Origin: Enterobacteria phage KhF3
Reading direction: 5' to 3' (one strand)
Sequence record: KT184315.1
Length of the DNA: 64,000 nt
Below are positions 27,778-33,186 of this stretch, one piece after another. The notes under the pieces were generated by a model. That model had not been told where the DNA came from and searched no databases. It was given only the letters and a program-made list of their open reading frames with translations. The stretch's first letter is position 1, and each line of letters starts with the position of its first letter. The position numbers and the translations under genes are program-made.

Positions 27778-27941
27778 AGGAGAAACCACAATGTACGTCA
27801 GAGACATACTGTATAAGTCTTCTTATAAAGTATAGCTCTGTAAAAAAGCCCTGTCTAAAAATACTCTTCGGTAGCGAAAGGAAGAATACTTATAGCAGGG
27901 CATTATTATTATTTTAATTGAGAGAGAGTAAAATAACTTGG

Positions 27942-28014
27942 AGAATCCGAAGGGACTCGAACCCTTATAAACCTGTTTTGCAGACAGGAACATAGCCATT
28001 TCTGTCACGGATTC
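27942..28014 (-). tRNA. tRNA-Cys (anticodon GCA)
   Basis: Manual fold: T-arm AAGGG-ACTCGAA-CCCTT (plus view), 7-bp acceptor, anticodon loop CTGCAAA, U73, CCA encoded. Confidence 0.7.
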
Positions 28015-28021
28015 AAATTGG

Positions 28022-28111
28022 AGGAAGATACCAGACTTGAACTGGTACACCGATTTCTCAGCTACTGGCAGTTTAGCAAACTGCTCCCTTACCTTTTAGG
28101 GTTAATCTTCC
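28022..28111 (-). tRNA. tRNA-Ser (anticodon GCT), class II
   Basis: T-arm ACCAG-ACTTGAA-CTGGT, 21-nt variable arm, anticodon loop TTGCTAA, perfect 7-bp acceptor. Confidence 0.7.
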
Positions 28112-28112
28112 A

Positions 28113-28847
28113 TTATTTCTGTAATGCGTTCTTCATTTCTGGTGTTGCAATAGTGTCAATCACACCAGTTTTACAAGCATCATCAAACCAGTCTGGTAAG
28201 ATACCTGCTAAGAACCCATTGATATTCGTTTTAAGGTACTCTGCAATAAGAGCAGCTTCTTCTTCAATCATCTGCACAACTTCATCTGCATAAGCTGTAA
28301 TCTTCGAAATACCTTCATTAATCTTACTAACAGCTTGGTTAGCTAAATCAGAAATAGTATCAAGACCTTTGTCAATAGCATCTTGTAAGTCACTTAATAC
28401 ATCATTAACGACATCTAGTGCACTGTTAATTGTGTCAATAGCTTTTTGACCATATTCTGTAGCAACGCCCATAATACCACTAAACGGTGTACAGCCAACT
28501 TGTTCCCCTGCTGCACCCATAACATTGGAATACCCCTTTGCTACCTGCATACGTGATGAAAACTCATCAATAGACTTTTGACCATAGTCTGTTAAGGTCT
28601 TAGTAGTCGCTGTAGTGCTTGTAAGGCTTGTTGTAAAGCTGTTTAGAAGGACTGTTGTAAGTCCAGCAGCAACAAGTTTCTCCTTCATTGTAGGGTCTGT
28701 TACAGAGCTAATAGAACTTACAAGTGATGTAGAGGCAGCTACGGTTCCACCGAGAACTGCTGCACCAGTAATAAGGGGATTAGAAAACCCTCTACCGGTT
28801 TTTAAGAGATTAAAAATCTCCTTACCTTGTTCTGTCATCTCTTTCAT
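28113..28847 (-). CDS. Hypothetical protein (Ser/Thr-rich) embedded in tRNA region
   Basis: Start moved to internal ATG at 28847 because track start 28910 overlaps tRNA-Phe. Confidence 0.4.
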   Translation of the reverse strand: MKEMTEQGKEIFNLLKTGRGFSNPLITGAAVLGGTVAASTSLVSSISSVTDPTMKEKLVAAGLTTVLLNSFTTSLTSTTATTKTLTDYGQKSIDEFSSRMQVAKGYSNVMGAAGEQVGCTPFSGIMGVATEYGQKAIDTINSALDVVNDVLSDLQDAIDKGLDTISDLANQAVSKINEGISKITAYADEVVQMIEEEAALIAEYLKTNINGFLAGILPDWFDDACKTGVIDTIATPEMKNALQK

Positions 28848-28865
28848 TAAGCACCTTTGTAATTG

Positions 28866-28940
28866 GTAGTCCAGTGGGATTTGAACCCTCTTCTCATGTT
28901 TTTCAGACACGCGCTTTAACCATATAAGCTACTTGGACTA
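28866..28940 (-). tRNA. tRNA-Phe (anticodon GAA)
   Basis: T-loop ATTTGAA (plus view), 7/7 acceptor pairing, anticodon loop CTGAAAA. Confidence 0.65.
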
Positions 28941-28948
28941 TAAATTGG

Positions 28949-29021
28949 GGTGACCTACGGGATTTGAACCCGTATAGACCATGTTCACAGCATGGGTCAT
29001 TACCATTTATGATAAGGCCAC
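28949..29021 (-). tRNA. tRNA-His (anticodon GTG)
   Basis: Perfect T-stem and anticodon stem, loop CTGTGAA, discriminator C73, CCA encoded. Confidence 0.7.
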
Positions 29022-29055
29022 ATTTAAGGACTCTCGTAAGAATCCTTAGAAGTGG

Positions 29056-29128
29056 CAGCGGCATAAGGATTTGAACCTTAATAGGACAGCTTCAGAGACT
29101 GTTGCATTGCCAGTTATGCTATACCGCT
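29056..29128 (-). tRNA. tRNA-Gln (anticodon CTG)
   Basis: T-arm TAAGG-ATTTGAA-CCTTA, anticodon loop CTCTGAA, G73. Confidence 0.65.
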
Positions 29129-29136
29129 AAATTTGG

Positions 29137-29212
29137 TACTCCATATCGGATTCGAACCGATACATAACACAGATTTTAAGTCTGGCCTCTCTGCCAATTG
29201 GAGTAATGGAGC
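29137..29212 (-). tRNA. tRNA with anticodon TAA (Leu codon UUA) but class-I length
   Basis: Perfect T-arm ATCGG-ATTCGAA-CCGAT, A73, CCA encoded; anticodon loop CTTAAAA; 7-nt variable region only. Confidence 0.55.
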
Positions 29213-29217
29213 ATTGG

Positions 29218-29290
29218 CGGGGGATGTTGGAATTGAACCAACTTCTTCGATTTCAAAGACCGAGGTTTTAACCTTGTAAACTAATCCCCT
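29218..29290 (-). tRNA. tRNA-Gln (anticodon TTG)
   Basis: T-arm GTTGG-AATTGAA-CCAAC, anticodon loop CTTTGAA, G73. Confidence 0.65.
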
Positions 29291-29298
29291 TTAAATCT

Positions 29299-29856
29299 TT
29301 ACTTTCTCAGTGGATGAATAAAGAATGCCAACATAACTCTTTCCCTTGAGAATGCTCTTTCTTCTGGGACAACACTTTTTAGTTTCCATCCAATATAAAT
29401 TCTCCAGTAAAACTGTTTACCAAAGACTTTAATTGATGGGATAAAGGCGAATAATCCCCAAGCATTACTGTTCCACATTAGGAGATAACCAGTCTGATTA
29501 TCTTCAGGGTCAGAACTTACGTTGATATTACCTTTCCACTTAGTAACATCTTTTACATCTCTTCCTAATACATGGTAAGAGAAGTTATAAGCTTTGTTTC
29601 TCCAGAGCCATCCGACTCTTTGCATGTAGACGCCTAGTTTACCAATCCATCTAATATTAGCCCATCTTTTAACGTGACCTTCATCACCATCAATTGGGTT
29701 GTCATATGTCTCCATCCATCTGAACCCGAAAGGTAAGTGTCCTTTCTTCTCACTGTAGAATGGAACTACAAAAGGTGCTAAGATAACTGCTAAGATTGCT
29801 GCAAATGGTTCTAACAAAGCTAAGAAAATCCATGAAGCATACTTTAAGTATCTCAT
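29299..29856 (-). CDS. Hypothetical membrane protein
   Basis: 185 aa; N-terminal TM WIFLALLEPFAAILAVILAPFVV; Trp-rich. Confidence 0.4.
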   Translation of the reverse strand: MRYLKYASWIFLALLEPFAAILAVILAPFVVPFYSEKKGHLPFGFRWMETYDNPIDGDEGHVKRWANIRWIGKLGVYMQRVGWLWRNKAYNFSYHVLGRDVKDVTKWKGNINVSSDPEDNQTGYLLMWNSNAWGLFAFIPSIKVFGKQFYWRIYIGWKLKSVVPEERAFSRERVMLAFFIHPLRK

Positions 29857-30095
29857 TGTCTAATCCTCGTAAGGAGGTAAATGTTATTATTCGTTTCTAA
29901 ACCTTCTGGTAAAACTATCTCAAAAATAACACTCTTCAGATGTCTACCACCAAAACAATCACGTATAAATCTTTCTACTCTAGCGGGGTCACATAAGTAT
30001 CCCACTTTTAAGAAAATGTGGTGTTCAACACCAATGACCCTGACAAACTCAATACTCTCACAGTTTTCATGTTCAACTACTGTTAATGTTTGCAT
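29853..30095 (-). CDS. Hypothetical protein
   Basis: 80 aa ORF coupled to downstream gene. Confidence 0.4.
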   Translation of the reverse strand: MQTLTVVEHENCESIEFVRVIGVEHHIFLKVGYLCDPARVERFIRDCFGGRHLKSVIFEIVLPEGLETNNNIYLLTRIRQ

Positions 30096-30115
30096 AGTAT
30101 CACCTTTTTATCTGG

Positions 30116-30188
30116 CGCAGGATAAGGGATTCGAACCCCTATTAACAGCTTCGTAGACTGTTGCTCTTTCCATTTGAACTAATCCTGC
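30116..30188 (-). tRNA. tRNA-Arg (anticodon ACG)
   Basis: 7/7 acceptor pairing, T-loop ATTCGAA, anticodon loop CTACGAA. Confidence 0.7.
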
Positions 30189-30196
30189 AAAATTGG

Positions 30197-30271
30197 TGTT
30201 CCAAGACGGATTCGAACCGTCACTAATACAAGGTTTGAGCTTGCATCCTCTGCCAATTGGGATACTGGAAC
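30197..30271 (-). tRNA. tRNA with anticodon CAA (Leu codon UUG) but class-I length
   Basis: Perfect T-arm GACGG-ATTCGAA-CCGTC, A73, anticodon loop CTCAAAC, 6-nt variable region. Confidence 0.55.
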
Positions 30272-30275
30272 ATGG

Positions 30276-30347
30276 TACTCACTAAAGGACTTGAACCTTT
30301 TTCTTCATCTTGTAAGGGTGATGTTTTACCATATAAACTAAGCGAGT
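30276..30347 (-). tRNA. tRNA-Val (anticodon TAC)
   Basis: T-arm AAAGG-ACTTGAA-CCTTT, anticodon loop CTTACAA, A73. Confidence 0.65.
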
Positions 30348-30443
30348 ATGAAAGAGGTCTGGAGTTGTGCCGCTAACTCAACTCCGTGGAATTTGTTACG
30401 GTCTTCAGTTGACTCAAAGCGGTCTTTCACTTGACCTCTGAAT
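30348..30443 (-). ncRNA. Structured non-tRNA spacer (candidate small RNA or processing element)
   Basis: No T-loop signature; hairpin GGAGTTG-N11-CAACTCC at 30361-30385; long-range GAGGTC/GACCTC; contains ACGGTCTTC motif. Confidence 0.3.
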
Positions 30444-30446
30444 TGG

Positions 30447-30519
30447 TGCTCCCACAAGGACTCGAACCCTGATAAGTTGCTTACAAGGCAACCGTAATAA
30501 CCAATTATACGATAGGAGC
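30447..30519 (-). tRNA. tRNA-Thr (anticodon TGT)
   Basis: Perfect anticodon stem GTTGC/GCAAC, loop CTTGTAA, A73. Confidence 0.7.
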
Positions 30520-30529
30520 ATTAATTTGG

Positions 30530-30601
30530 AGCATCCAGAGGGAATCGAACCCTCAACCTCAGTTTGGAAGACTGTAATTTTCCCGTTTAAACTATGGATG
30601 C
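30530..30601 (-). tRNA. tRNA-Gly (anticodon TCC)
   Basis: Perfect acceptor and T-stem, loop CTTCCAA, U73. Confidence 0.7.
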
Positions 30602-30610
30602 ACTAATTGG

Positions 30611-30683
30611 TGGAGTCACCGAGAATTGAACTCGGTTCCCAAGTTTGCAAAACTCGAATTTTAACCATATAAACTATGACCCC
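30611..30683 (-). tRNA. tRNA-Ala (anticodon TGC)
   Basis: G3:U70 wobble pair in acceptor stem (Ala identity element), A73, anticodon loop TTTGCAA. Confidence 0.75.
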
Positions 30684-30692
30684 ATTGTTTGG

Positions 30693-30765
30693 TACAGGTG
30701 GAGGGAATTGAACCCATCGTCTTACTGATTAAGAGTCAGCCGCATAACCATTTTGCTACACCTGC
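30693..30765 (-). tRNA. tRNA-Lys (anticodon CTT)
   Basis: T-loop AATTGAA with weak 3-bp T-stem, anticodon loop CTCTTAA, A73. Confidence 0.6.
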
Positions 30766-30775
30766 ATTAATTTGG

Positions 30776-30849
30776 TACACCTAGAGAGATTCGAACTCAC
30801 ACTGAGCAGATTCTAAGTCTGCTGCCTCTACCAGTTGGGCTATAGGTGC
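30776..30849 (-). tRNA. tRNA with anticodon TAG (Leu codons CUA/CUG) but class-I length
   Basis: Perfect anticodon stem GCAGA/TCTGC, loop CTTAGAA, A73, 5-nt variable region. Confidence 0.55.
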
Positions 30850-31104
30850 ATTAAATCTTTTTAGAGAACTTCTAAGAACCTAAGCAACAAGGCTCCACAA
30901 CAAGCTGTAATAACCTTAGAAGCCCTCTAAAAAGACCTAAATAGGTCTTTGCATAGTCTTGTTTAATCCGGTGACTAGAACCTTTGGAGAGCTTGATATT
31001 ATCTCTTCTCCGTGACACCTACTAGGTGCTTTGACAGTGTACGACAATACACGAGGGATAAACCGACAATGCGAACAAGCATGGACGGAGTAAATCTTAT
31101 TAGG

Positions 31105-31192
31105 CGGTAAGTAAAGGAGTCGAACCCTCACCGTATCTCTACAGTGGCAACTGTTTTCAAGACAGTTTGGCTACCATTAGCCGCTACCTACC
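31105..31192 (-). tRNA. tRNA-Ser (anticodon TGA), class II
   Basis: Perfect anticodon stem ACTGT/ACAGT, loop CTTGAAA, 20-nt variable arm, G73. Confidence 0.7.
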
Positions 31193-31208
31193 CCTAATAA
31201 GACTTTGG

Positions 31209-31288
31209 CATGGGACGGAGGAGTTGAACCCCTTTGAAACGGTTTTGGAGGCCGTTGCTCATGCCTTAGAGTCTTAACATCGTCCCAT
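31209..31288 (-). tRNA. tRNA-Trp (anticodon CCA) with enlarged D-loop
   Basis: Perfect 7-bp acceptor, G73, anticodon loop CTCCAAA; about 7 extra nt in D region. Confidence 0.6.
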
Positions 31289-31433
31289 ATTATAATTCGA
31301 AGCTTACCCTGTTATCTCAACACTGTCAAGCTTCTTCTCAGATTATTTACATGTTCTGGAAAACATGAGATACAGACCACCTCCCTACAGGAAGACCCGC
31401 TAAGGCCGTCTAAGTAATCTGCTAACTATTTGG

Positions 31434-31507
31434 TACACCCTACAGGATTCGAACCTGTAACTAACGATTTAGAAGACCGTTGCTCTATCCAATTGAACTA
31501 AGGGTGC
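31434..31507 (-). tRNA. tRNA-Arg (anticodon TCT)
   Basis: Perfect T-arm ACAGG-ATTCGAA-CCTGT, anticodon loop CTTCTAA. Confidence 0.7.
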
Positions 31508-31756
31508 ATTATCTTTAAAGACTCTCTTAGAAAGCCCTTAAAGATGCCCACCTTATTAATCATACCGTGGGCGAGTACGCCAAATTCTTTGATGAGGGAT
31601 TGGAAGACCTCACTGGTGTTTAGCCTATCAAGCTACTGCCAGAAAAACATTGTCGTTTGCATTTATTTTAAATTTGCAAAATAGACGCTACGCAACGAAA
31701 ACTAAGGTTACTATAAAGTAGTCACATCTCAATGTCAACAACTTTATTGAAATTGG

Positions 31757-31829
31757 TACTGGTAGGTGGAATCGAACCACCGATGTTCCCTTATCAGGGG
31801 AGTGTTATAACCTTCTTAACTATACCAGC
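31757..31829 (-). tRNA. tRNA-Ile (anticodon GAT)
   Basis: Perfect T-arm GGTGG-AATCGAA-CCACC, anticodon loop CTGATAA, A73. Confidence 0.7.
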
Positions 31830-31833
31830 TTGG

Positions 31834-31907
31834 AGGTTCAGATGGGAATCGAACCCACATTCATAGGGCTTATGAGACCCTTGCATTACCTTATCTGCGA
31901 CTGAACC
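31834..31907 (-). tRNA. tRNA-Met (anticodon CAT)
   Basis: Perfect 7-bp acceptor, anticodon loop CTCATAA, three G-C pairs in anticodon stem. Confidence 0.65.
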
Positions 31908-31988
31908 AGAATAAGTACCCTAGTTAGAGAAACTGTTGAGTGGGTGTTTCCAGCCGCGCAGGTGTTTCTCAGTTAAGGGTGAATTTGG

Positions 31989-32061
31989 TAGAAGTGGAGG
32001 GATTCGAACCCATCGCCTGTCAGATTAAAAGTCTGCCGCATCACCATTCTGCTACACTTCC
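31989..32061 (-). tRNA. tRNA-Lys (anticodon TTT)
   Basis: Anticodon loop CTTTTAA, A73, T-arm similar to the other Lys tRNA. Confidence 0.65.
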
Positions 32062-32065
32062 ATTA

Positions 32066-32209
32066 AATTATCTTTGTAGATAAGCTACCCAGACTTGCTT
32101 AAGGTCTGTAGCGATGTGCCTTTTTGGGTTTAAATCTAGAATTTACCCTTTCACCCTTTGTGGTCGCATACTCACAGGTAAGCTTAATAACTTATCTACA
32201 AAGATAATT
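32066..32209. repeat. 19-bp perfect inverted repeat (AATTATCTTTGTAGATAAG) with arms about 106 nt apart
   Basis: Left arm 32066-32084, right arm 32191-32209 (reverse complement identical). Confidence 0.7.
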
Positions 32210-32234
32210 ACCAGACCGTTGTTTATCATCTTAA

Positions 32235-32307
32235 GTGCTACCATTACACCAACTCGACATCTGCCGAGTGAAGGAATCGAACCTTCGCCTTTTCTTTACC
32301 GGAGAAA
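32235..32307 (-). ncRNA. tRNA-like element with all tRNA arms present in circularly permuted order (anticodon GGT)
   Basis: Minus-strand order: anticodon arm TTTCT-CCGGTAA-AGAAA, 4-nt variable, T-arm GAAGG-TTCGATT-CCTTC, 3' acceptor ACTCGGC, linker AGAT, 5' acceptor GTCGAGT, U8, D-arm GTGT-AATGGTA-GCAC; bracketed by 8-bp helix (plus 32213-32220 with 32331-32338). Confidence 0.4.
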
Positions 32308-32524
32308 TAGATTGTTTAAGTTTTGCTGTAAACGGTCTTCTGTAAAATTGTTGAGCCAGACCAAGTTTTATAAATTTTTTCAAAATTAAATTGGCTTGAA
32401 AATATCATACGTACTTGCTGAATTTGGTCTTCTGCTCCTTTAAAGAATACTCGTAAGAACTCTTTAAGGGAGGGGCTAAAATAGCCCTCTCAAACATCAT
32501 TTTGAAATACTTATTATAATTTGG

Positions 32525-32599
32525 CGGTTACGAAGGGATTTGAACCCTCATCATCTCCCGTGACAGGGGAGTATTTTAACCAGATTAAACTACATAACC
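32525..32599 (-). tRNA. tRNA-Asp (anticodon GTC)
   Basis: Perfect anticodon stem CTCCC/GGGAG, loop CTGTCAC, T-loop ATTTGAA, CCA encoded. Confidence 0.7.
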
Positions 32600-32608
32600 T
32601 TTATTTGG

Positions 32609-32693
32609 TGTGCCGTGTAGGAGTCGAACCTACCGAGTCTCAATGACAAGGGATTTACAGTCCCCACCGCTACCATCTACGGGATAACGACAC
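32609..32693 (-). tRNA. tRNA-Tyr (anticodon GTA), class II
   Basis: Perfect T-arm GTAGG-AGTCGAA-CCTAC, 15-nt variable arm, anticodon loop CTGTAAA, A73. Confidence 0.7.
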
Positions 32694-32705
32694 ATTTAAA
32701 TTTGG

Positions 32706-32779
32706 CGGTTAGTCAGGGATTCGAACCCTGTGCCATTCGCTTAACAGGCGACCGCACATACCTTATGTGCTTCCTAACC
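32706..32779 (-). tRNA. tRNA-Asn (anticodon GTT)
   Basis: Perfect T-arm CAGGG-ATTCGAA-CCCTG, anticodon loop CTGTTAA, G73. Confidence 0.7.
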
Positions 32780-32856
32780 TTAATACATTGCCAGACCGTG
32801 TTTTTTCTTTTATCCGCAAAAAGTATTTTGTTGCTGAATACGGTCTTCTGCAAAAT
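32780..32856 (-). ncRNA. Repeated hairpin spacer element (CAGAAGACCGT ... ACGGTCTGG family)
   Basis: 7-bp stem AGACCGT/ACGGTCT enclosing about 40 nt that begins ATTCAGCAA; same arms recur at 32211/32331, 32356/32426, 32943/33008. Confidence 0.35.
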
Positions 32857-32859
32857 TGG

Positions 32860-32933
32860 AGGCGGGTGCAGGAGTCGAACCTGCCGATACCATGCTAATG
32901 AGACATGTGAGACGCCCTTTCTCTATACCCGCA
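32860..32933 (-). tRNA. tRNA with anticodon CAT (Met- or Ile2-type) and unpaired 1:72
   Basis: Perfect T-arm GCAGG-AGTCGAA-CCTGC, D-stem GAGA/TCTC, anticodon loop CTCATTA, first acceptor pair mismatched. Confidence 0.55.
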
Positions 32934-33027
32934 ATTCTTAATGACCAGACCAAATCTATTCTTTGTCCGATTTACCTTCAGATGAATAAGATTAAGTTTG
33001 CTGTAATTGGTCTTCTGTCAAAACTGG

Positions 33028-33102
33028 CGTTCCAGAAGGGATTTGAACCCTCAGATATCCACTTTGAAAGAGTGGTGACTTTACCATTTTGTCTACTGGA
33101 AC
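33028..33102 (-). tRNA. tRNA-Glu (anticodon TTC)
   Basis: 7/7 acceptor pairing, perfect anticodon stem, loop CTTTCAA, G73. Confidence 0.7.
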
Positions 33103-33112
33103 ATTAATTTGG

Positions 33113-33186
33113 TCTCTGTTGGAGGACTTGAACCTCCGGCCTTACCGCCCCAAACGGAACGCTCTACCAAGCTGAGCTAAACAGAG
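33113..33186 (-). tRNA. tRNA-Pro (anticodon TGG)
   Basis: 7/7 acceptor pairing, perfect T-arm GGAGG-ACTTGAA-CCTCC, loop TTTGGGG, A73. Confidence 0.7.

Follow-up and report, generated by a model that had tools for sequence, protein, structure and literature searches.

Textbooks and the single dedicated study (PMC6614811) regard bacterial tRNA-Leu as essentially always long-armed, a view from which Felix O1-like phages depart. The identity set of E. coli leucyl-tRNA synthetase (LeuRS) consists of A73, U8-A14, A15-U48, G18G19, A20a and the T-loop; the enzyme does not read the anticodon, which sets decoding (PMC9976931, PMC6614811). In the account that PMC9976931 gives of Asahara 1993/1998 and Larkin 2002, E. 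coli LeuRS charges armless tRNA-Leu when A73 and the D/T-loop contacts are intact. Such charging without the long arm is the mechanism proposed here for phage tRNA-Leu, with the difference that those constructs were laboratory-made, whereas nature supplies the phage genes, which are conserved and widespread. Yan et al. 2013 showed that both the loop size of the variable arm and nucleotide 20 are sensed, with 2-3 fold effects, by the leucine-specific domain of the E. coli enzyme, and stated that its C-terminal domain touches the variable arm (PMC3643597). Fan et al. 2019 found that E. coli LeuRS failed to leucylate the type I, i.e. short-armed, tRNA-Leu(CAA) of Streptomyces coelicolor and described the enzyme as charging type II tRNA-Leu only (PMC6614811). 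The literature is divided on charging in that armless E. coli constructs are charged and the Streptomyces type I tRNA is not charged by the E. coli enzyme (PMC9976931, PMC6614811).

The S. coelicolor tRNA is charged by a bacterial-type LeuRS and resembles the phage genes described here in A73, A14 and a 5-nt variable loop, ACAGC as compared with NCAGU in many phage genes; its good activity requires a variable loop of at least 5 nt including N48 (PMC6614811). It differs in being chromosomal and in having C48, whereas the phage-borne genes have U48 with the E. coli-type A15-U48, and in its LeuRS, which does not use A73 and requires a particular leucine-specific domain (PMC6614811). S. coelicolor has one short tRNA-Leu, whereas the three tRNA-Leu genes identified in the 64-kb stretch of phage KhF3 DNA analysed here (hereafter the window) are short-armed without exception. 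Animal mitochondrial tRNA-Leu, for instance human mt-tRNA-Leu(UUR), also combines a short variable loop with identity via A73 and A14 (PMC9976931), but its core is loose and atypical and it is served by a mitochondrial LeuRS of its own, whereas the phage elbow is canonical bacterial.

The tRNA-Leu of E. coli (leuZ, leuX and leuW, taken by genome coordinates) and of phage T5 align end to end with the phage genes, the sole gap being 8-10 nt in the variable arm (8 nt for Leu(UAA) against leuZ, 10 nt for Leu(UAG) against leuW and T5); Leu(CAA) aligns with leuX except for the variable arm. Shared features are the 3-bp D stem, the AAYYGGYAGA D loop, U48 and A73, while leuZ has G1.U72 in common with two of the three short tRNAs. 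The phage anticodons are those of the three minor host tRNA-Leu species. Host and T5 forms differ in their length of 85-87 nt, with a stem-loop arm of 13-15 nt, and host leuW has G37 where Leu(UAG) has A37 (30812), position 32 differing as well. The tRNA-Leu of T4 is a canonical class II tRNA, comparable to the E. coli and T5 forms.

Structure of the three genes and their array

Felix O1 relatives are well-known phages of E. coli and Salmonella that are used in typing and biocontrol. The window belongs to a Felixounavirus and is 99.8% identical to phage XTG1. It contains a tRNA array (Table 1) that is interrupted by a few small ORFs and in which nearly all tRNAs have an encoded CCA. Two small ORFs within the array gave no functional assignment. 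The array had initially been taken to decode all 20 amino acids, which had to be corrected to 19, given that tRNA-Trp was not found at normal thresholds: neither ARAGORN (normal and 85% thresholds) nor Rfam (E<=1) detected it in the array spacers. ARAGORN calls at 75-80% inside the array overlap known tRNAs or ORFs, and two Trp calls fall outside the array. Related phage Sf14 has been described likewise as having 26 tRNAs for 19 amino acids and no Trp (PMC12482277). Rfam matches to tmRNA, tRNA-Sec and Plastid-ycf2 in the array were rejected, all being sub-threshold and nearly all overlapping tRNA genes on either strand.

Table 1. Position of the tRNA array and of the parts of the three short-armed tRNA-Leu genes in the window
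Feature	Position	Strand	Length	Anticodon	Variable loop	Method
tRNA array, 26 genes, 19 amino acids (no Trp)	27939..33186	-				ARAGORN, Rfam
tRNA-Leu(UAA), type I	29134..29212	-	76 nt + encoded CCA	29176-29178	7 nt, GTTATGT, 29162-29168	ARAGORN, Rfam RF00005
tRNA-Leu(CAA), type I	30194..30271	-	75 nt + encoded CCA	30235-30237	6 nt, ATTAGT, 30222-30227	ARAGORN, Rfam RF00005
tRNA-Leu(UAG), type I	30773..30849	-	74 nt + encoded CCA	30813-30815	5 nt, TCAGT, 30801-30805	ARAGORN, Rfam RF00005

The three genes are genuine tRNA-Leu without the long variable arm. ARAGORN and Rfam agree on the TAA, CAA and TAG anticodons that the earlier note, made from the letters alone, had proposed, and its coordinates, which left out the CCA, proved exact: RF00005 matches 29137-29212 with 47.5 bits, 30197-30271 with 44.0 bits and 30776-30849 with 57.3 bits, the gathering threshold being 29 bits and the encoded CCA lying outside the matches. 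ARAGORN strings and a fold by hand concur in a 7-bp acceptor, a 3-bp D, a 5-bp anticodon and a 5-bp T stem, consistent with the good acceptor stems and T-arms seen at first reading, and in an 11-nt D loop, CAAYTGGYAGA, in all three. The T loop and elbow are fully canonical bacterial (GTTCGAATC); the T arm fits GTTCRANYC, and the anticodon arm has a loop of 7 nt with U33, in keeping with RF00005. Mismatches occur at C27-U43 in Leu(UAA) and U50-U64 in Leu(UAG). Variable regions had been estimated at 5-7 nt, and measure 7, 6 and 5 nt in both the ARAGORN structures and the hand fold. This falls short of a class II region, which has more than 10 nt with a stem-loop; all three instead show the type I combination of a leucine anticodon, a short variable loop of at least 5 nt and A14. 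The two tRNA-Ser and the tRNA-Tyr of the array keep long arms, with lengths of 88-93 nt and variable regions of 15-21 nt.

The suspicion that the anticodon stem had been misplaced, or that a long arm was hidden, was dismissed: genes of this length leave no room for an arm, and a single register emerges from ARAGORN, Rfam and covariation alike, with ARAGORN returning the same leucine anticodons and no extended variable arm. The register is secure since U33 and A35 are invariant and the four helices covary in 32 distinct tRNAs of the same architecture, where 96.7% of the cells are paired (slid controls 34-46%) and 19 of the 20 pairs change on both sides.

Leucine identity elements and conservation

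Discriminator A73 is present in all three tRNAs, as originally claimed, and likewise in every one of 56 short phage tRNA-Leu and in 113/114 long ones. All three also have the hinge elements U8-A14, the A15-U48 trans-Levitt pair, G18G19, A20a and U54-A58/U55/C56, where G18G19 sits at the Leu-specific position in the enlarged D loop. Leu(UAA) carries G1.U72, C2-G71, U8, A14, A15, G18G19, A20a, U48 and A73, and Leu(CAA) and Leu(UAG) have the same D-arm signature, U48 and A73. A resemblance of the D-loops to the Leu or Trp type had been suggested and was borne out for Leu: the 11-nt signature reads C13-A14-A15-Y-U-G18-G19-Y-A20a-G21-A22, and only these three of the 26 array tRNAs combine a 3-bp D stem, this 11-nt loop, U48 and A73. 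The Leu D-arm signature together with U48 and A73 is found in 47/56 short and 106/114 long tRNA-Leu as compared with 21/633 other tRNAs. The anticodons UAA, CAA and UAG all conform to the leucine pattern NAA/NAG.

For the Sf14 orthologues of all three, the best-scoring isotype model in tRNAscan-SE 2.0 is Leu, with 67.4, 49.1 and 60.2 bits, although 14 of the 26 Sf14 tRNAs do not agree with the model of their own isotype (PMC12482277). The GenBank annotation of the three genes is already tRNA-Leu, likewise in hundreds of records. The leucine identity that the earlier note had offered conditionally is thereby favoured, as judged by the LeuRS identity set, the isotype scores of the orthologues and these annotations.

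Among the 32 distinct short tRNA-Leu, T8, A14, A15, G18, G19, A20a, U48 and A73 are invariant, as are the T-loop and the other hinge elements, while the stems vary freely. Alignment with tRNA-Leu of related phages identified orthologues of Leu(UAA) and Leu(CAA) with 99-100% identity in other Ounavirinae, across Felixounavirus and Mooglevirus: Leu(UAA) shows 99-100% identity in Sf15, Maleficent and vB_Si_35FD, and Leu(CAA) 100% in three other Ounavirinae. The short Leu tRNAs of phiEa21-4 have the same D arm and different but compensated stems. With Leu(UAG), short tRNA-Leu from phages that infect Bacillus, Mycobacterium and Streptomyces share 77-82% identity. The nearest neighbour is another short gene for 40/56 of the phage short tRNA-Leu. 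A blastn search of 5,426 E. coli genomes with Leu(UAG) gave no match, which says little because 77 nt are too few for a significant hit in a database of 28 Gb.

Occurrence in phages and bacteria

A tRNA-Leu census was made by a length-neutral scan of viral contigs and a matched sample of bacterial genomes. Short tRNA-Leu amounted to 46/170 (27%) in the viral contigs versus 0/120 in the matched bacterial genomes (p=1.5e-12) and, within the viral contigs, to 40/104 in large tRNA arrays versus 6/66 otherwise. Besides many IMG/VR contigs, unrelated phages that infect Bacillus, Enterococcus, Mycobacterium, Streptomyces and Erwinia have them, and the phages with this architecture have hosts from at least three bacterial phyla. 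The core reading of the earlier note therefore stands, its 20-amino-acid coverage does not, and the feature is not peculiar to KhF3, since it recurs in unrelated phages. CAA is the commonest short-form anticodon in phages (17 short vs 10 long). Arm loss was never seen for tRNA-Ser in the length-neutral scan, and tRNA-Ser and tRNA-Tyr in the same arrays as short tRNA-Leu keep their arms. The short form is common in phage tRNA clusters, which suggests the short-armed tRNA-Leu as a marker of phage tRNA arrays. Extrapolation from the sample would put short forms at roughly 20-40% of tRNA-Leu in lytic phages that have arrays, at essentially none in cells other than Streptomyces, and at none for tRNA-Ser.

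In the one full-text collection searched, no mention of short-armed tRNA-Leu in phages was found, which is no proof of novelty; the word "variable" is absent from the paper on the genome of Felix O1 and from that on the tRNAs of Sf14. For annotation, it follows that a phage tRNA of 74-77 nt with a leucine anticodon is not to be dismissed as a miscall.

Charging, decoding and loss of the arm

To judge from their sequences, the three genes are very probably working leucine tRNAs of the rare type I, charged most likely by host LeuRS and serving leucine codons favoured by the phage. Transcription would be together with the rest of the 26-tRNA array; with CCA present in the genes, the transcripts should require end processing only. 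A scan of the array for promoters and terminators did not exceed the expectation from shuffled sequence, promoter-like sites being no commoner than there, and hence gave nothing direct on transcription. Host LeuRS would then charge the short tRNAs with leucine. In the window, which covers about three quarters of the genome, neither a phage LeuRS nor another synthetase was found when the ten largest ORFs were searched; these ORFs encode structural proteins, a terminase, a portal and domains of unknown function. The arm would be dispensable in tRNA-Leu and not in tRNA-Ser or bacterial tRNA-Tyr because Ser and Tyr synthetases read the arm.

Leu(UAA) is predicted to read UUA/UUG, Leu(CAA) UUG, and Leu(UAG) CUA/CUG and probably CUU too. 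Leucine codons in the window are TTA (29.5%), CTT (26.8%), CTG (13.1%), TTG (12.8%), CTA (11.7%) and CTC (6.1%); the phage is AT-rich (39% G+C) and the codons read by the three tRNAs are most of its leucine codons. By standard codon-usage figures these codons are poorly served in the E. coli host, and phage translation would presumably benefit from the three tRNAs. In Sf14 the RSCU of TTA and CTA is above that of the host (PMC12482277). Terminase TTA/TTG/CTA codons correspond in the phiEa21-4 orthologue to Leu at 17/27 and to Ile/Val/Met at 8/27 positions; such alignment with Leu and aliphatic residues indicates that the codons keep their standard meaning.

Cells always keep the arm and phages often drop it, which raises the question why, and also whether arm loss protects from tRNA-directed defences. 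That the loss is not neutral decay but an adaptation specific to phages and widespread among them, seems unlikely; it would hide tRNA-Leu from arm-recognising antiviral effectors of the host, bacterial counterparts of MenT3/AbiEii-type nucleotidyltransferases or Schlafen-type tRNases, and let phages with big tRNA arrays go on decoding leucine. Were it true, ordinary bacterial LeuRS, that of E. coli included, would charge natural type I tRNA-Leu, against the published view. We consider it quite improbable that arm loss serves as counter-defence, by which short tRNA-Leu would escape host effectors recognising the class II arm and leucine decoding would be kept up while host tRNA-Leu is inactivated during infection. 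The enrichment of short tRNA-Leu in viral contigs and large arrays and their absence from matched bacteria do suggest phage-specific selection, and the anticodon loops of Leu(UAG) and Leu(CAA) differ from those of the host. The same data are, however, explained if tRNA-Leu simply lost a part dispensable for LeuRS, and class II effectors would still disable the tRNA-Ser and tRNA-Tyr that retain arms in the same arrays. T4 and T5 do well with long-armed tRNA-Leu, and none of E. coli, Salmonella and Shigella is known to have an effector that attacks tRNA-Leu through its arm. Elsewhere, MenT3 prefers long-armed tRNAs and a like preference of the abortive-infection toxin AbiEii was inferred by the authors from the size of the modified tRNA, but AbiEii left M. 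tuberculosis tRNA-Leu unmodified in vitro (preprint 10.64898/2026.01.19.700257). Human SLFN11 restricts viruses via type II tRNA cleavage and cuts arm-deleted tRNA-Leu less (PMC11615386).

It is very doubtful that the LeuRS of E. coli or Salmonella charges these genes poorly or not at all, and that they are decaying or have a non-decoding role as decoys, regulators or processing signals. The failure of the E. coli enzyme on the sole natural bacterial type I tRNA-Leu tested (PMC6614811) would fit this, as would the fact that Leu(UAA) and Leu(CAA) have Rfam scores among the lower ones of the array, and the mismatches in Leu(UAA) and Leu(UAG). Against it, conservation between genera is 99-100%, the nucleotides read by LeuRS are invariant and the stems covary in the 32 sequences, the three anticodons match leucine codons favoured by the phage, and phages with hosts from at least three bacterial phyla retain the architecture, a pattern that decay would not preserve. 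The Streptomyces tRNA has C48, whereas the phage tRNAs have the U48 of the A15-U48 pair needed by E. coli LeuRS, a difference that may be the reason for the discrepancy in charging. Strictly conserved genes with every nucleotide read by LeuRS offer a natural and easily tested substrate for the purpose of the arm.

Charging by another synthetase, such that phage leucine codons would partly be read as another amino acid, has hardly any probability. A73 is common to many class I tRNAs; among class I-type synthetases, however, those accepting tRNAs with A73 mostly read the anticodon, and leucine anticodons would not fit. For the UAG and UAA species of Sf14 the Lys, Ile2 and Arg models score a few bits under Leu, but the Leu model comes first for all three orthologues (PMC12482277). 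The combination of D-arm, U48 and A73 in 84-93% of tRNA-Leu and about 3% of other tRNAs, the position of terminase TTA/TTG/CTA codons at conserved Leu or aliphatic residues, and the lack of a synthetase domain in the window's ten largest ORFs all speak for leucine. Genome economy was rejected as the cause of arm loss, as the approximately 27 nt saved in a genome of about 88 kb would be negligible.

The leucine tRNA genes and their array

By ARAGORN, the minus strand of the window holds 26 tRNA genes within 27939-33186, among them three with the leucine anticodons UAA, CAA and UAG and variable loops of 5-7 nt: GTTATGT (7 nt) in Leu(UAA), ATTAGT (6 nt) in Leu(CAA) and TCAGT (5 nt) in Leu(UAG). 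All three were also identified by the Rfam tRNA model (threshold 29 bits), of which the match bounds equal the coordinates of the earlier note exactly, the encoded CCA lying outside them. The ARAGORN structure strings and a fold made by hand agreed on a common architecture, consisting of a 7-bp acceptor stem, U8, a 3-bp D stem with an 11-nt D loop (CAAYTGGYAGA), a 5-bp anticodon stem with a 7-nt loop, a 5-bp T stem with loop TTCGAAT, and A73 followed by CCA. The short-armed class I fold with A73 and leucine anticodons, as described in the earlier note, was thus correct in every structural detail by ARAGORN, Rfam and hand fold.

Features of the tRNA array and its flank, in window coordinates
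Feature	Position	Strand	Evidence or remark
tRNA-Leu(UAA)	29134-29212	minus	ARAGORN; Rfam tRNA model 47.5 bits
DUF7338/phrog_2143 ORF, 185 aa	29299-29856	minus	inside tRNA array; labelled 'holin' in record MZ327261
phrog_14202 ORF, 80 aa	29853-30095	minus	inside tRNA array; function not assigned
tRNA-Leu(CAA)	30194-30271	minus	ARAGORN; Rfam tRNA model 44.0 bits
tRNA-Leu(UAG)	30773-30849	minus	ARAGORN; Rfam tRNA model 57.3 bits
DUF2828 + DUF7788 ORF, 471 aa	33352-34767	minus	immediately upstream of array

Long arms are kept in the two tRNA-Ser and the tRNA-Tyr of the array (88-93 nt). No tRNA-Trp was found in the array at normal thresholds (ARAGORN, Rfam), therefore 19 amino acids are covered and not all 20, as had been claimed; the set of close relative Sf14 has been described in the same way, with 19 amino acids and no Trp (PMC12482277). 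The related Erwinia phage phiEa21-4, unlike this array, has a tRNA-Trp (comparison stretch L251, 4087-4162). TGG occurs at 10.9 per 1000 codons in the window ORFs.

The region shares 99.8% identity with Enterobacteria phage XTG1 and matches 314 phage records, mainly of Felixounavirus and other Ounavirinae (hosts Escherichia, Salmonella, Shigella and Citrobacter). Since matched records already carry the annotation "tRNA-Leu (x3)" the isotype assignment is not new; the Sf15 record names tRNAscan-SE as the source of its tRNA calls. Shigella phage Sf15, Citrobacter phage Maleficent and Salmonella phage vB_Si_35FD carry Leu(UAA) and Leu(CAA) at 99-100% identity; for the 13 tRNA genes of the interval the mean identity in those relatives is 84-88%, a rough value since the alignment is upset by indels and rearrangements. 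The Leu(UAG) slot contains two very different alleles within Ounavirinae, one in the window and Maleficent, the other, one nucleotide longer ahead of the D stem, in Sf15 and vB_Si_35FD (stretches L249 and L252, both 2083-2160); they are only 57-61% identical and have the short arm in common.

Leucine identity and the host synthetase

E. coli LeuRS does not use the anticodon, and the sequence and fold of the long arm are uncorrelated with activity, arm-less constructs still being active (Giegé and Eriani, PMC9976931; Fan et al., PMC6614811). The identity set of E. coli LeuRS comprises A73, U8-A14, the A15-U48 pair, G18G19, A20a and T-loop positions (same sources). All of it is found in the three phage tRNAs, which are the only ones among the 26 of the array to combine a Leu-type D arm with U48 and A73. 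The long-armed tRNA-Leu of E. coli (leuZ, leuX, leuW) and of phage T5 match the phage genes end to end, the sole gap being 8-10 nt of the variable arm. In this alignment A14, A15, G18, G19, A20a, G21, A22, G47-U48 and A73 are invariant. An independent classifier agrees: in Sf14 the Leu isotype model comes out top in tRNAscan-SE 2.0 for all three (67.4, 49.1 and 60.2 bits), in a set where 14 of 26 tRNAs contradict their own isotype model (PMC12482277).

phiEa21-4, from another genus of the same subfamily, has three short tRNA-Leu (UAA, AAG and CAA) with the D arm as in the window and quite different, compensated stems. When 32 distinct short tRNA-Leu genes of 74 nt, taken from many phages, are aligned without gaps, 96.7% of alignment cells are paired, both sides change in 19 of 20 pairs and the covariation score is 0.987 vs 0.24 in shuffles; control structures slid by 1-3 columns have a paired share of only 34-46%. 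Outside the T loop the invariant positions are T8, A14, A15, G18, G19, A20a, U33, A35, U48 and A73, which are the LeuRS identity set; invariance of G18 and G19 was partly imposed by the search pattern, that of A14, A15, U48 and A73 was free of it.

Leucine codons number 1,354 among the 17,096 codons of 79 window ORFs and are distributed over TTA (29.5%), CTT (26.8%), CTG (13.1%), TTG (12.8%), CTA (11.7%) and CTC (6.1%). In E. coli about half of the leucine codons are CUG and about 4% CUA. Mean RSCU of host vs phage was 1.06 vs 1.63 for TTA and 0.43 vs 0.69 for CTA in the Sf14 study (PMC12482277). Leu(UAA) decodes UUA/UUG, Leu(CAA) UUG and Leu(UAG) CUA/CUG and, by analogy with its host counterpart, in which U34 is modified, probably CUU too; the codons read by the three are the set favoured by the phage and least supplied by the host. 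Of the 27 TTA, TTG and CTA codons compared in the terminase, 17 fall opposite Leu and 8 opposite Ile, Val or Met in the phiEa21-4 orthologue. Their meaning is therefore leucine, which any tRNA that reads them must carry in order to be harmless. None of the window's ten largest ORFs has a synthetase domain, so that the host enzyme must do the charging. There is good support for the leucine reading, and that these are leucine tRNAs charged by host LeuRS we consider likely.

This sits awkwardly with the published specificity of the E. coli enzyme, and here lies the main reason why the genes matter beyond routine annotation. Fan et al. 2019 (PMC6614811), who do not mention phages, worked on tRNA-Leu(CAA) of S. 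coelicolor (variable loop ACAGC), so far the only natural bacterial tRNA-Leu of type I, i.e. without long arm, to be described; EcLeuRS did not charge it, and they described this enzyme as one that "only charges type II" and Streptomyces LeuRS as the sole prokaryotic one to charge both. An E. coli phage in which all three detected tRNA-Leu are type I is hard to square with that claim. The leucine-specific domain of the E. coli enzyme senses arm-loop size and nucleotide 20, with effects of 2-3 fold (Yan et al. 2013, PMC3643597); position 20 is U in the E. coli tRNA-Leu species and C in two of the three phage tRNAs. E. coli LeuRS requires an A15-U48 pair (PMC9976931, PMC6614811). Since the Streptomyces tRNA has C48 and short phage tRNA-Leu have U48 (54 of 56), this difference possibly resolves the conflict which, as far as we found, is unreported. 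The three genes are new members of type I tRNA-Leu, known from mitochondria and Streptomyces, in a new setting.

The anticodon loop of Leu(UAG) is CUUAGAA vs UUUAGGU in host leuW, with A37 (window 30812) for G37, the m1G37 site of CUN-reading tRNA-Leu; given A37, TrmD would not accept the phage tRNA as a substrate. In Leu(CAA) the A36-A37-A38 motif for recognition by TrmL (PMC9976931) is broken by C38.

Short tRNA-Leu in phages and cells

A distant blastn search with the region matched annotated tRNA-Leu genes of unrelated phages, four of which were fetched. Bacillus phage P59 has two short tRNA-Leu (77 nt), Mycobacterium phage Tonenili three (74-76 nt), Streptomyces phage MulchMansion two (75-76 nt) and Enterococcus phage Bop one of 76 and one of 86 nt; tRNA-Ser is long in all four arrays, and tRNA-Leu of T5 is long. 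The array of Bop also contains a tmRNA (tag AKNEELLAVA; L004, 2412-2759), adjoining one short and one long tRNA-Leu.

A length-neutral pattern (GGTAGA-N9-YTNARR-N14-32-GTTCRANNC, allowing a variable region of 4 to 22 nt) was used to scan 120 IMG/VR viral stretches and 120 stretches of GTDB representative genomes; among the matches listed, 25 of 137 viral and 0 of 120 cellular ones were short (Fisher p = 9e-8). Counting all ARAGORN tRNA-Leu of these loci, each required to have one or more tRNAs with a GGTAGA D loop, 46 of 170 (27%) were short in viral vs 0 of 120 in cellular loci (p = 1.5e-12), again among the matches listed. The viral fraction is conservative because IMG/VR includes prophage ends carrying host tRNAs. 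Within the same listed viral matches, short forms were commoner in loci with at least five tRNAs (40/104 vs 6/66 with fewer; p = 1.6e-5), and short tRNA-Ser (0/44) and tRNA-Tyr (1/18) were absent or rare. A literature search in full text found no remark on the missing arm of these phage tRNA-Leu; their frequency in phage arrays and absence from the cellular sample are, as far as found, unreported.

The leucine signature is common to short and long phage tRNA-Leu: A73 occurs in 56/56 and 113/114, U48 in 54/56 and 113/114, and D arm, U48 and A73 together in 47/56 and 106/114, vs 21 of 633 other tRNAs. With anticodon and variable region masked, the nearest neighbour was a short gene from another locus for 40 of the 56 short genes (short genes form 19% of the set; binomial p ~1e-17), and those nearest to the three of the window come from Bacillus, Mycobacterium and Streptomyces phages. 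It therefore seems that short lineages circulate from phage to phage, the 16 short genes with a long neighbour leaving room for several origins.

Arm loss confined to tRNA-Leu fits the needs of the synthetases: SerRS reads the size of the long arm, Ser, Leu and Tyr are told apart by G73 or A73 plus the arm, and the arm is dispensable for LeuRS (PMC9976931). As sampled cells always keep the tRNA-Leu arm and phages often drop it, the selective regime differs, and the armless form might escape effectors that favour long-armed tRNAs, as do MenT3 and, by the authors' inference, the abortive-infection toxin AbiEii (preprint 10.64898/2026.01.19.700257); human SLFN11 likewise cleaves tRNA-Leu more weakly after arm deletion (PMC11615386). 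However, tRNA-Ser and tRNA-Tyr would stay vulnerable to such effectors and none acting on tRNA-Leu is known in enterobacteria. We consider an escape form improbable.

The reverse of bacterial expectation was seen in IMG/VR viral contigs L103, L108 and L114, where a tRNA with UAU (isoleucine) anticodon is long-armed (variable region of 21-22 nt), and in survey stretch L030, where one with tyrosine anticodon has class I length.

Neighbours of the array

The DUF7338/phrog_2143 protein has no assigned function despite its label. In Mooglevirus relatives Sf15 and Maleficent, tRNA-Arg(ACG) directly follows tRNA-Gln(UUG), at the place of this ORF in the window. The position of the DUF2828/DUF7788 ORF beside tRNA genes may or may not be meaningful.

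tRNA-Ser(UGA) (31103-31192) scores only 33 bits with the Rfam model and ends in CC, not CCA. tRNA-Tyr and the second tRNA-Met (32606-32693 and 32857-32933) are called by ARAGORN, yet fall under the Rfam gathering score; tRNA-Tyr of Felix O1 was entered as 'pseudo' in the Felix O1 paper. No tRNA was detected in spacers 30348-30443 (96 nt) and 30850-31102 (253 nt), and at the place of the latter Maleficent has an HNH endonuclease gene (L250, 2161-2613).
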